Origin: Candidatus Atabeyarchaeum deiterrae
GTDB lineage: Archaea > Asgardarchaeota > Atabeyarchaeia > Atabeyarchaeales > Atabeyarchaeaceae
Reading direction: 5' to 3'
Assembly: GCA_037310415.1 (NCBI GenBank)
Contig: CP147780.1
Location: 773,066 to 793,065 of the forward strand
Length of the DNA: 20,000 nucleotides
A model generated the notes under the pieces. That model saw nothing but the letters and a program-made list of their open reading frames with translations, made no database searches and was not told where the DNA came from. The translations under genes and the position numbers were made by a program. This document shows, in pieces, positions 5,133 through 19,688 of this stretch. Position 1 is the first letter of the stretch, and every line of letters begins with the position of its first letter.

Positions 5133-6272
5133 CTACCCTACTCCCACCGTGTTTCCTATGCCAGCTATGAGTACCGTAGATCCAAGTTCTGTTCGATCCC
5201 TGATAATCTGTTTGACTCTTTCAACAACTTTGTCTGCTGCGTCAGCGATTTCCTTTTTCATCGGCATCACTGCTTCCTCAATGGCTTCCTTCACAAGTAT
5301 CGCGTCCAATGGGATGTCGTACTTTACAGCAGACTCTTCAATCTTATACTTCTCAGGACCTGGGTCGCCAATTGCGGCACCGACGCCTTCAACTACGTCG
5401 CCAGTAGTCTCCCCCTCAAGTTTGCCAGCAGCGTCAATCATTATAATCCTTGAGATGTGCCCCTTATGATCCTCGACTATCCTCTCAATAGCCTCTCCAG
5501 GTTTACCAACTCGGCTGCCTGGTCCCTTGGCCCTGACAAGGAGAACTTTTCTCTTCTCAAGCTGAATCTCTGCAACCGTAACTTCCTTGGCCACGTCTTC
5601 CGTTATGATTGGGCTTTCTCCATTTTTCTTATATTCATCCGCCAGGCGAGCTATGACAAGCGGTCCCAGTCCATCACCTATCGGTTTGCCCAGTGAGAAC
5701 GCTTTCAATGCTTCAAGATAAGCTTTGGCGATTTGCATGATTTGCGCTAGCTGCATTTGTATTTGCAGAGAAATATACATGTTCTTCGTCTTTTTCCCCA
5801 GTAGGTAGTAGTGCCTGACTACTTTGAAGATGAAGTACACGGCACCTGCCGCTTCGAGTGTTCCCTCAAGATTTGAAGCCTCATCCTTGCTGGCGTTTGG
5901 AGCCATTCTTGTGACAGCATCTTCCCACCTTGACTTCCTGACATCTAAGACGTGATCCAGCCTCTGAATCACGCCAGCCGGATCAATATTGACTGGTTCT
6001 ATGGTCACAAATTCTAGCATCGATTCCACAGATTTAGTAGGATCTTCGCTCGTTTTGCCGAGGTCCTTTATCGCCTTAGTAGTTATCTCTTTTCCTTCAT
6101 CTGACATCCGGTTCAATCGGATCATAGCGGCCTCTATCTGTTTGTTCCACCTCCAAACCTGAAGAGATTGCGCATAGAACACACTGATGAATATCATGAC
6201 AAACCACAGTATCTGAATAATCAGATTGAAGTCCACGCCAAATATGGTGAACTGCAAAGGCAAACTAGTCAT
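5133..6272 (-). CDS. DUF1512-like conserved archaeal membrane-anchored protein (start reassigned to MTSLPLQFTIFG)
   Basis: Long ORF 5133..6404; internal Met at 6272 begins a hydrophobic N-terminus, and a TATA-like box (ctttttataaac, about 6346-6357) lies upstream of it. The sequence resembles the archaeal DUF1512 family from memory. Confidence 0.72.
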   Translation of the reverse strand: MTSLPLQFTIFGVDFNLIIQILWFVMIFISVFYAQSLQVWRWNKQIEAAMIRLNRMSDEGKEITTKAIKDLGKTSEDPTKSVESMLEFVTIEPVNIDPAGVIQRLDHVLDVRKSRWEDAVTRMAPNASKDEASNLEGTLEAAGAVYFIFKVVRHYYLLGKKTKNMYISLQIQMQLAQIMQIAKAYLEALKAFSLGKPIGDGLGPLVIARLADEYKKNGESPIITEDVAKEVTVAEIQLEKRKVLLVRAKGPGSRVGKPGEAIERIVEDHKGHISRIIMIDAAGKLEGETTGDVVEGVGAAIGDPGPEKYKIEESAVKYDIPLDAILVKEAIEEAVMPMKKEIADAADKVVERVKQIIRDRTELGSTVLIAGIGNTVGVG

Positions 6273-6482
6273 TCCAAAGTCATCTCCTGCTGGTCTCTCG
6301 AAGTCTTCGCGACTTTCAGACAATAACGGGTAATGAACCAGCTTTTTATAAACTTGTGTATTTAGGCAAACGATGAATAAAGAGAAATCGAGCGGGACTC
6401 CCAAAAGGATTTTAGGGAGTTGAGAGAATATCCGTTATGACAGTTTAATCATGGCTCCGCATCGGGGCTTTTGAGTTTTAGT

Positions 6483-6659
6483 GTGGCAACAATCCGTGGT
6501 CGGAACGGGAACGGGTGTTACACCCCGCCTATGACCGGCGGCGAACCGCCAGCCGTCCAAGCTTCCCGAAGGGTCTCCCACTTCAGTACAACAAGGATCG
6601 CGCGAGGGCTTAACTCTCACGGCCCAGGTAGGTACCTGATGGCTTTCACGTGTTGCCAC
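6483..6659 (-). rRNA. 5S ribosomal RNA, circularly permuted gene order (3' portion, UUCG linker, 5' portion)
   Basis: Minus strand: GTGGCAACA-[leader hairpin]-GAGAGTTAAGCCCTCGCG...TTGTACTGAAGTGGGAGACCCTTCGGGAAG...GGACGGCTGGCGG-TTCG-CCGCCGGTCATAGGCGGGGTGTAACACCCGTTCCCGTTCCGACCACGGAT-TGTTGCCAC. All 5S landmarks are present but in permuted order; helix I (6554-6546 / 6541-6533) is closed by UUCG. Confidence 0.9.
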
Positions 6660-6691
6660 CAAATCTGTGTCTATTACCAGAAGATAGATTT

Positions 6692-6700
6692 CTTATAAAC
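6692..6700 (-). promoter_or_regulatory. TATA-like box for the permuted 5S rRNA gene
   Basis: Minus strand GCTAAGTTTATAAGAAATC; centred about 26 nt upstream of an expected start near 6670, just before the terminal helix. Confidence 0.6.
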
Positions 6701-6776: not shown

Positions 6777-7007
6777 GGGGCCGTAGCCCAGTAGCTGCGA
6801 AGCAACACAGTTGGGTAACTCGGTAAGGCGACGGGCTCCAGAGAATTGAGACTGCTCAAGTAGGACCGTTAAGGGATGACGAATTTCTGGAGCGGCCTAG
6901 AAGAAACCCGTAGAGTGAACAACCGAAGTGCAAATTCACGCGAAAATCAGGAGTTCAAATCTCCGCGCGACTCGATGCGAGGCGTGAGAATCTCCTCGGC
7001 CCCACCA
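6777..7007 (+). tRNA. tRNA-Trp(CCA) with four introns; CCA tail encoded
   Basis: Acceptor GGGGCCG (6777-6783)/CGGCCCC (6997-7003); A73 then CCA; anticodon stem ACGGG (6831-6835)/CCCGT (6907-6911); loop CTCCAG...A; T arm AGGAG-TTCAAAT (6949-6960) and CTCCT (6992-6996). Introns about 6792-6818, 6842-6905, ~32 nt in 6912-6948, and ~6960-6991. Removing them leaves about 77 nt. Confidence 0.87.
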
Positions 7008-7075
7008 ACCAAATAGCAACACGAGGAATTGAGCCTAGGTTTTTAGTTTGTTCTCATCACGGGCATCCGTAAAAA

Positions 7076-19557: not shown

Positions 19558-19688
19558 GCCGAGGTAGCTCAGCTTGGTTAGAGCGCCGGATCGCGTTAAA
19601 TAAACAAGACGAAACTCATAATCGGCTGAAATCTGGGGTCAGATGAGAAATCCGGAGATCGCGCGTTCAAATCTCGCCCTCGGCACCA
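19558..19688 (+). tRNA. elongator tRNA-Met(CAT) with two introns flanking the anticodon loop; CCA encoded
   Basis: Acceptor GCCGAGG/CCTCGGC, D arm GCTC-AGCTTGGTTA-GAGC, CCGGA (19586-19590), CTCATAA (19615-19621), TCCGG (19651-19655), T loop TTCAAAT, ACCA end. Removing 24 and 29 nt gives 78 nt. Confidence 0.78.

Follow-up and report, generated by a model that had tools for sequence, protein, structure and literature searches.

The window analysed here, i.e., the whole stretch of 20,000 nucleotides, carries on its minus strand a 5S rRNA gene that is circularly permuted, as seen in a permissive Rfam scan by E-value. At the Rfam gathering threshold, no 5S rRNA was found in the 20-kb window, where the sole match was an intron-containing tRNA, nor in any of the eight relatives scanned. 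The permissive scan gave an RF00001 match at 6544-6663 (-), with a score of 21.7 bits that lies under the gathering score of 38, and a separate match of 16.5 bits at 6488-6518 (-), corresponding to model positions 25-54 (helix III/loop C). In the RNA, this helix III/loop C segment sits 3′ of the part that should follow it. The two partial matches jointly cover the whole model in rotated order; hence, the locus lacks a contiguous RF00001 match of at least 38 bits because the gene is permuted. Indeed, according to the order of the Rfam matches, the 3′ portion precedes the 5′ portion on one strand and under one promoter. As a consequence of being missed at the gathering threshold, in the window as in the eight relatives, such a gene makes genomes look devoid of 5S rRNA in completeness or quality assessments. 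The elements of the transcription unit are the following:

6693..6699, minus strand: TATA box TTTATAA, within the conserved block ATCGCTAAGTTTATAAGAA; invariant in alignments of relatives.
6651..6659, minus strand: 5′ strand of the 9-bp helix, GUGGCAACA in the RNA; outer BHB helix h, in the leader, predicted to be discarded.
6622..6650, minus strand: 29-nt insert CGUGAAAGCCAUCAGGUACCUACCUGGGC, found in the window genome only and absent from 13 of 13 relatives.
6646-6650, minus strand: second CGUG-A copy within the insert, read from the sequence.
6622-6643, minus strand: hairpin within the 29-nt insert, obtained by folding.
6618..6621, minus strand: 5′ strand of the central BHB helix H, CGUG, which pairs with 6495-6498; invariant, and 100% paired in 12 distinct sequences.
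6615..6617, minus strand: 5′ bulge AGA, with a predicted cut between 6616 and 6615; its first two nucleotides vary (AG/AA/UG) and would be discarded.
6615, minus strand: A6615, invariant, the predicted first residue of the 5S rRNA.
6493..6615, minus strand: predicted mature 5S rRNA, a 123-nt circle with ends 6493 and 6615 ligated, from the Rfam partial matches and the in-silico fold; its order is loop B 3′ side and helix II 3′ strand, helices V/IV, helix I 3′ strand, tetraloop, helix I 5′ strand, loop A, helix II 5′ strand, helix III/loop C.
6533..6554, minus strand: helix I hairpin GGCUGGCGG-UUCG-CCGCCGGUC, with compensatory changes.
6542-6545, minus strand: helix I tetraloop, UUCG in the window and UGCG in relatives.
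6499..6501, minus strand: 3′ strand of the inner BHB helix h′, GAC, which pairs with GUU at 6612-6614.
6495..6498, minus strand: 3′ strand of helix H, CACG, which pairs with CGUG at 6618..6621.
6492..6494, minus strand: 3′ bulge GAU, with a predicted cut between 6493 and 6492; GA is invariant and would be kept, while the third nucleotide varies (U/A/G) and would be discarded.
6483..6491, minus strand: 3′ strand of the 9-bp helix, UGUUGCCAC, in the trailer, predicted to be discarded.

Read from 5′ to 3′, the first part of the RNA consists of GUGGCAACA, the 29 extra nucleotides, CGUG-AGA, AGUUAAGCCCUCGC and helices V/IV. The second part is made of GGCUGGCGG-UUCG-CCGCCGGUC, AUAG, the helix II 5′ strand and helix III/loop C, which ends in ...CCACG-GAU and is followed by UGUUGCCAC. 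The AGUUAAGCCCUCGC segment corresponds to the loop B 3′ side and the helix II 3′ strand, its leading A being the third nucleotide of the 5′ bulge. The TATA block ATCGCTAAGTTTATAAGAA, conserved in relatives, lies 30-33 nt upstream of the stem and is the single promoter block of the unit, no second one being present inside the permuted region. From the usual archaeal spacing between TATA box and transcription start, the single-stranded leader before the stem would measure approximately 8-10 nt and the whole leader approximately 24 nt.

In the window and in the relatives, the permuted 5S gene always lies approximately 80-200 nt upstream of a DUF1512 gene on the same strand (5133-6404 (-) in the window). 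No oligo-T run separates the two genes in the window, and only short T-runs do so in relatives; transcriptional read-through from the 5S into the DUF1512 gene is possible. The 5S locus is flanked by sub-threshold Rfam matches to C/D-box snoRNAs of 16-17 bits, at 6390-6457 (-) and 7031-7065 (-). C/D-box genes also adjoin the permuted SRP RNA gene in Thermoproteus (PMC4731332). The weak C/D-box and tmRNA matches obtained with Rfam near the locus were dismissed as a tRNA-Ser artefact or sub-threshold noise.

A repeat search found a 9-nt inverted repeat with arms at 6483-6491 (GTGGCAACA) and 6651-6659 (TGTTGCCAC), 100% complementary and separated by 159 nt. This confirms the original prediction that the two 9-mers are perfect reverse complements. 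The same prediction held that they bracket the permuted 5S exactly; they do bracket it, but the first 5S residue is separated from the stem, at the 5′ end of the RNA, by approximately 36 nucleotides foreign to 5S rRNA (6616..6650, i.e., the 29-nt insert plus CGUGAG), and 1 nt lies on the 3′ side. Its two other structural statements, namely that the helix is foreign to canonical 5S rRNA and that it is placed at the junction between loop B and helix III, were upheld. A perfect 9-nt inverted repeat was obtained by chance in 725 of 2000 shuffles (36%) of a 601-nt stretch; hence, the repeat alone is not significant and its significance comes from conservation.

The genes neighbouring the 5S locus are archaeal, and the closest named homologue of the adjacent DUF1512 protein is found in Candidatus Njordarchaeota (Asgard). 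About 20 clusters are 73-78% identical to the DUF1512 protein of the window, the next ones dropping to 56%. Relatives were taken as the contigs coding eleven DUF1512 homologues, together with three further loci retrieved by DNA pattern, all within a single clade. The same permuted 5S gene, 88-94% identical to the window copy, was present just upstream of DUF1512 in every related locus, with gene order kept. Sources of the contigs include JGI 3300031604, 3300035643, 3300038663 and 3300051196 as well as SRR9661788 and SRR24099973. The stem was found in 13 of 13 related loci, which come from different metagenomes, with a mean pairwise identity of 98.1%, compared with 91.3% for the 5S body and with 58% and 40% for the sequences just outside the stem. 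Within the junction, the central helix H reached a mean pairwise identity of 100%. The three bulge nucleotides predicted to be kept were likewise 100% identical, and those predicted to be discarded were 54% identical.

In species-representative genomes, the permutation-specific pattern GTTAAGC..CATAG..ACACC returned 120 chance loci (L001-L120), none of them 5S-like by BLAST, the pattern being too loose. A tighter pattern applied to JGI metagenome contigs retrieved four loci, all from the same clade. A pattern scan of viral contigs gave no permuted 5S locus, and no 5S was found upstream of the next-closest DUF1512 homologue (P0021, 56% identity) within the 191 nt to the contig end.

Such a degree of conservation bears on whether the locus is functional at all. 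A decaying, rearranged 5S pseudogene, with the real 5S gene located elsewhere and an incidental repeat, would be in line with the score under the Rfam gathering threshold and with the frequency at which 9-nt inverted repeats occur by chance. We consider such a relic very improbable: the permuted gene is 88-94% conserved and has its own conserved promoter in 13 loci of different metagenomes, against 40-58% identity for the flanks, helices I and IV show compensatory substitutions, and all 5S elements are intact after reordering.

In all 13 relatives, the RNA reads GUGGCAACA-CGUG-NRA-GUU...GAY-CACG-GAN-UGUUGCCAC, the 5′ end continuing with GUUAAG after NRA. These segments form an outer helix h of 9-10 bp, a 4-bp helix H (CGUG/CACG), two 3-nt bulges on opposite strands and a 3-bp helix h′ (GUU/GAY). 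A BHB is defined as a 4-bp helix between two 3-nt bulges (PMC6379350). In the 13 relatives, CGUG/CACG is invariant and the bulges are NRA and GAN; besides, helices flank the motif on both sides, with 9-10 bp outside and the 3-bp GUU/GAY helix inside. From its sequence, the leader/trailer motif is a strict hBHBh′, the form recognised by the archaeal tRNA-splicing endonuclease, and a predicted substrate of this enzyme. Because the 29-nt insert breaks up the outer side in the window genome, the motif would there be either relaxed or used in two steps.

The pairing was specific to this register, as illustrated by 97.7% paired cells in the alignment vs. 29-54% when the partners were slid by 1-3 columns. 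Among 12 sequences, the h′ pairs were G-C (seven) or G.U (five), U-A (all 12) and U.G (all 12). When the 5S body was replaced by a GAAA loop, the MFE structure of this 52-nt mini-substrate was exactly the BHB shape (z = -2.9). Compensatory changes between the two 9-mers, proposed as a check in the original prediction, gave a weak signal: the nine core pairs are near invariant, and the outer 10th pair alone covaries: seven distinct sequences have G-C there, two have U-A and one has G.U. All changes in the core pairs are single-sided and none is compensatory (G.U, A.C and U.U). On the GUGGCAACA strand (6651..6659), an A>G change in L129 gives G.U and an A>U change in L138 gives a U.U mismatch; on the UGUUGCCAC strand (6483..6491), a U>C change in L133 and L135 gives an A.C mismatch. 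Folding of full-length precursors is neutral to mildly negative for the BHB reading under the energy model used. Indeed, the mature fold uses 6494-6497 (ACGG) as the helix III 3′ strand, which excludes the pairing of helix H, and the helix III conformer is favoured by 1-5 kcal/mol over the BHB conformer, the latter not being the MFE at 37°C.

An alternative is a linear permuted 5S rRNA, in which the bulges would not be cut and the mature molecule would keep the 9-bp helix as an additional arm where loop B meets helix III, holding the new ends together. The stem is present in the MFE structure of every full-length fold, and mitochondrial 5S rRNAs that are permuted in the final product exist in brown algae (PMC4267664). 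The stem is also more conserved (98%) than the 5S body (91%), as expected of an arm engaged in specific contacts; this is naively unexpected for a discarded element, and a retained, contacted helix would fit it as well. However, a linear product leaves unexplained the invariant non-5S CGUG that is complementary to the helix III strand, the linkers of exactly 3 nt each, and why the nucleotides at discarded positions alone vary. It also requires that, in one genome, the ribosome tolerate an extra 29-nt hairpin at a protein-binding junction. Moreover, accessible strict BHB motifs are normally cleaved in archaea, including those in rRNA and mRNA precursors (PMC6379350). We regard this linear form as unlikely. 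The original prediction had offered two options, a linear 5S with a new closing stem or a precursor brought into register for processing or ligation; the second is favoured by the BHB motif and by a predicted join that restores the consensus, and the first is less favoured. The BHB motif, the minus strand and the 29-nt insert specific to the window were not part of that prediction.

To locate the cuts, the rule of cleavage after the second bulge nucleotide on each strand was tested on the 37/38 intron of the tRNA-Met(CAU) gene of the window, where H is CUCA/UGAG. Applied to the 5S precursor, the same rule predicts cuts between 6616 and 6615 and between 6493 and 6492. The resulting join, ...CCACGGA to AGUUAAGC..., matches in silico the Rfam consensus CggAAguUAAG. 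The predicted ligation junction is GACCACGGA joined to AGUUAAGCC, also read as GGA/AGUUAAG, and the canonical 5S sequence is restored across it in silico. The 20-mer spanning it, GACCACGGAAGTTAAGCC(C/G/T), is not present in the DNA and would arise in the ligated product alone.

The rotated product measures 119 nt, or 123 nt with the tetraloop. Compared with the Rfam consensus, it is identical at 83 of 120 positions and at 32 of the 41 strongly conserved ones. After in-silico rotation, the MFE structure of the 119-nt sequences was the 5S three-way junction (helices I, II-III, IV-V) in nine of nine distinct variants, with the conserved loops in place. RNAalifold mis-predicts helix III on the rotated alignment, whereas the single-sequence MFE structures are correct. 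Seven compensatory pairs were counted in helices I and IV, four of them at the distal end of helix I, where GGCGG/CCGCC is exchanged for GAGCC/GGCUC. The UNCG tetraloop (UUCG/UGCG) sits directly on this covarying 9-bp helix I, with no spacer. Judged from sequence, this capped, covarying helix fits a permanent hairpin over a spacer.

The fate of the ligated molecule is open to two readings. In one of them, the circle would be an intermediate only and would be reopened in the helix I loop, giving a conventional linear 5S rRNA. Permuted tRNA genes behave in this way (PMC3978253, PMC3218864), and 16S and 23S circles are reopened in several archaea (PMC12918454). Nevertheless, what caps the covarying helix I (9 bp) is a conserved UNCG tetraloop of 4 nt and not a processable spacer, nothing at this locus implies a 5S-end nuclease analogous to RNase P or tRNase Z, and the SRP RNA of Thermoproteus remains circular (PMC4731332). 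Reopening seems quite unlikely to us. In the preferred reading, the circle would persist, because the UNCG cap is placed directly on the covarying helix I (9 bp), no spacer is left for trimming, and the closest precedent stays circular.

The explanation that we favour, and hold to be fairly probable, is that, in a permuted 5S precursor, leader and trailer pair into a BHB whose discarded outer stem is the 9-bp helix, and that an endonuclease and a ligase would convert this precursor into a circular 5S rRNA. Transcription would begin approximately 10 nt upstream of the stem, from the conserved TATA promoter, and leader and trailer would pair over 9-10 bp. The next leader nucleotides, CGUG, would then pair with the CACG borrowed from the helix III 3′ strand, leaving two opposite 3-nt bulges, each of which would be cut after its second nucleotide by the tRNA-splicing endonuclease. 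An RtcB-type ligase would join ...CCACGGA to AGUUAAGC..., with release of the stem and of a covalently closed 123-nt 5S rRNA, canonical except for helix I being capped by a UNCG tetraloop. The 29-nt insert of the window would either go together with the leader or be spliced out as a BHB intron in a second round. Among the parts of this scheme, cleavage and ligation appear likely to occur, while we lean, with less assurance, toward the circle being the final form. In line with this scheme, these 20 kb contain at least two tRNA genes with several introns, which indicates that BHB processing is heavily used in this lineage.

The insert of the window genome deserves separate consideration. CGUGAAAGCCAUCAGGUACCUACCUGGGC duplicates the CGUG-A element and adds a hairpin, with a layout of 24 nt plus a 5-nt CGTGA duplication. 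Two registers of the outer stem were obtained: in the first, supported by the MFE at 75°C and by the MFE of the mini-substrate, the first CGUG continues the 9-bp stem; in the second, given by the centroid, the second CGUG is used. In the ligated context, the insert folds as a complete hBHBh′ intron, GAC-CACG-GA/A-GCC...GGC-CGUG-AG/A-GUU (slashes marking the cuts), which uses the same H helix, and its predicted removal as an intron yields the same canonical junction. In these models, the insert may leave either with the discarded leader or as a BHB intron after a first ligation, and both predicted routes end in the same 123-nt circle. Its interpretation as a retained expansion hairpin was judged less likely, given the duplicated CGUG-A and the complete BHB intron in the ligated context. 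An insertion at the junction is easily tolerated at a splice site and hard to accommodate in a finished linear 5S rRNA.

Among known systems, the permuted SRP RNA of Thermoproteus comes closest. In T. tenax and T. uzoniensis, this RNA has a 23-nt leader, its leader/trailer BHB is cut by the endonuclease, and the mature RNA is circular (Plagens et al., 2015; PMC4731332). In both systems, a single unit has the 3′ part upstream of the 5′ part and starts from a TATA promoter with a short leader, of 23 nt in Thermoproteus and an estimated 24 nt or so here. They also share a leader/trailer BHB, a circle that restores a functionally important internal region, continuous sequence in place of the helix of the old termini, and a host lineage rich in non-canonical tRNA introns. 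Unlike the SRP RNA, the RNA described here is a 5S rRNA, i.e., a ribosome component, its host is an Asgard archaeon instead of a member of the Thermoproteales, it is known from sequence alone, and one of the 5S genomes has, at the junction, an insert that resembles an intron. Circularly permuted tRNA genes, known from Cyanidioschyzon merolae and Thermofilum pendens (PMC3978253, PMC3218864), likewise consist of a 3′ half, a short linker and a 5′ half, with a leader/trailer BHB and a circle formed after the action of endonuclease and ligase, a step that is predicted here. For tRNAs, the circle is opened again at the acceptor ends through the action of RNase P and tRNase Z, whereas a tight UNCG tetraloop occupies the corresponding site here; hence, the 5S circle probably persists. 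Mechanistically, the locus belongs with these BHB-repaired permuted genes, tRNAs and Thermoproteus SRP RNA, and its predicted product is unusual.

Other rRNAs provide further points of comparison. Archaeal 16S and 23S rRNAs possess long leader/trailer helices with BHB motifs that are cut by the endonuclease, leading to circularisation, and circular 23S rRNA can be the ribosomal form (PMC12918454; PMC7758197; PMC8339473). Their genes have in common with the present one the BHB processing stems but, in contrast to it, are not permuted in the DNA. In the species studied so far, 5S rRNA is stated not to take this 16S/23S circularisation route (PMC12918454). In Sulfolobus and Halobacterium, 5S circles have been noted at a low level, unvalidated (PMC3326292). 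The permuted 5S rRNAs known so far all come from the mitochondria of stramenopiles, brown algae and others (Valach et al., 2014; PMC4267664). As in the present case, helix I is there closed into a hairpin and the 5S domains follow one another in a rearranged order; the stramenopile ends, however, lie at the three-way junction (domains alpha/gamma), in a linear permuted product with neither BHB nor ligation, whereas here the break lies in the 5S beta domain and is predicted to be resealed. An engineered Escherichia coli strain, reported to have a circularly permuted 5S linked to the 23S rRNA (PMC7283268), indicates that relocated 5S termini can support ribosome function; this grafted 5S is artificial, bacterial and not circular. 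In our full-text literature searches, no archaeal 5S rRNA was found described as permuted or as a circle encoded by its gene.

If the preferred explanation is true, no permuted 5S gene would have been known before from a cellular (non-organelle) genome, nor any 5S rRNA that matures as a circle. 5S rRNA is regarded as being among the most uniform RNA genes of cellular life, and Asgard archaea are the group closest to eukaryotes. The same explanation, if right, predicts a circular 5S within a ribosome, and in the Asgard archaea. We incline slightly to the view that the 5S rRNA in the ribosomes of this Asgard clade is a covalent circle, produced from a permuted gene by the tRNA-splicing endonuclease and a ligase. 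An rRNA would in this case join the short list of scrambled archaeal genes (tRNAs, SRP RNA) that are repaired by the tRNA-splicing machinery, and the BHB-intron-like insert of the window at the circularisation junction would be direct evidence for an evolutionary link between BHB introns and gene permutation. The ancestral state predicted from this is a 5S gene in canonical order with a BHB intron separating GGA and AGUUAAG.

Intron-containing tRNA genes lie in the same window. At 19558-19685 (+), the removal of a 24-nt intron (31/32) and a 29-nt intron (37/38) yields a perfect tRNA-Met(CAU). Rfam reports a tRNA with a 59-nt insertion at 19558-19688 (+), where the ARAGORN scan of the window was silent. 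A one-intron tRNA-Leu(GAG) at 19558-19688, given by ARAGORN as an alternative, has a distorted shape and lacks a long variable arm, and tRNA-Met was preferred. A tRNA-like gene of approximately 231 nt was also observed at 6777-7007 (+), between the 5S promoter and a tRNA-Ser. It was missed by ARAGORN, and by Rfam even at E<=10; it is 77-87% conserved in relatives, its acceptor stem pairs perfectly over 7 bp (GGGGCCG/CGGCCCC), and it contains a T arm GGAGUUCAAAUCUCC, an encoded CCA and approximately 150 nt of internal insertions. It is probably a tRNA gene with several introns. The window copy has 31 extra nucleotides after the T arm (6965-6995 (+)) that are not found in relatives, consisting of 24 nt and a 7-nt duplication, the end of which repeats the preceding AATCTCC. 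By hand, no register of this 31-nt insert gave a canonical BHB. Its layout, 24 nt plus a duplication, is the same as that of the 29-nt 5S insert, a similarity that may reflect a common insertion mechanism in the window genome. Besides, a second partial copy of the tRNA-like element was observed in a relative (L125:872-1012, GCA_019058495.1), approximately 1.4 kb from the syntenic one and 87% identical over 141 nt.
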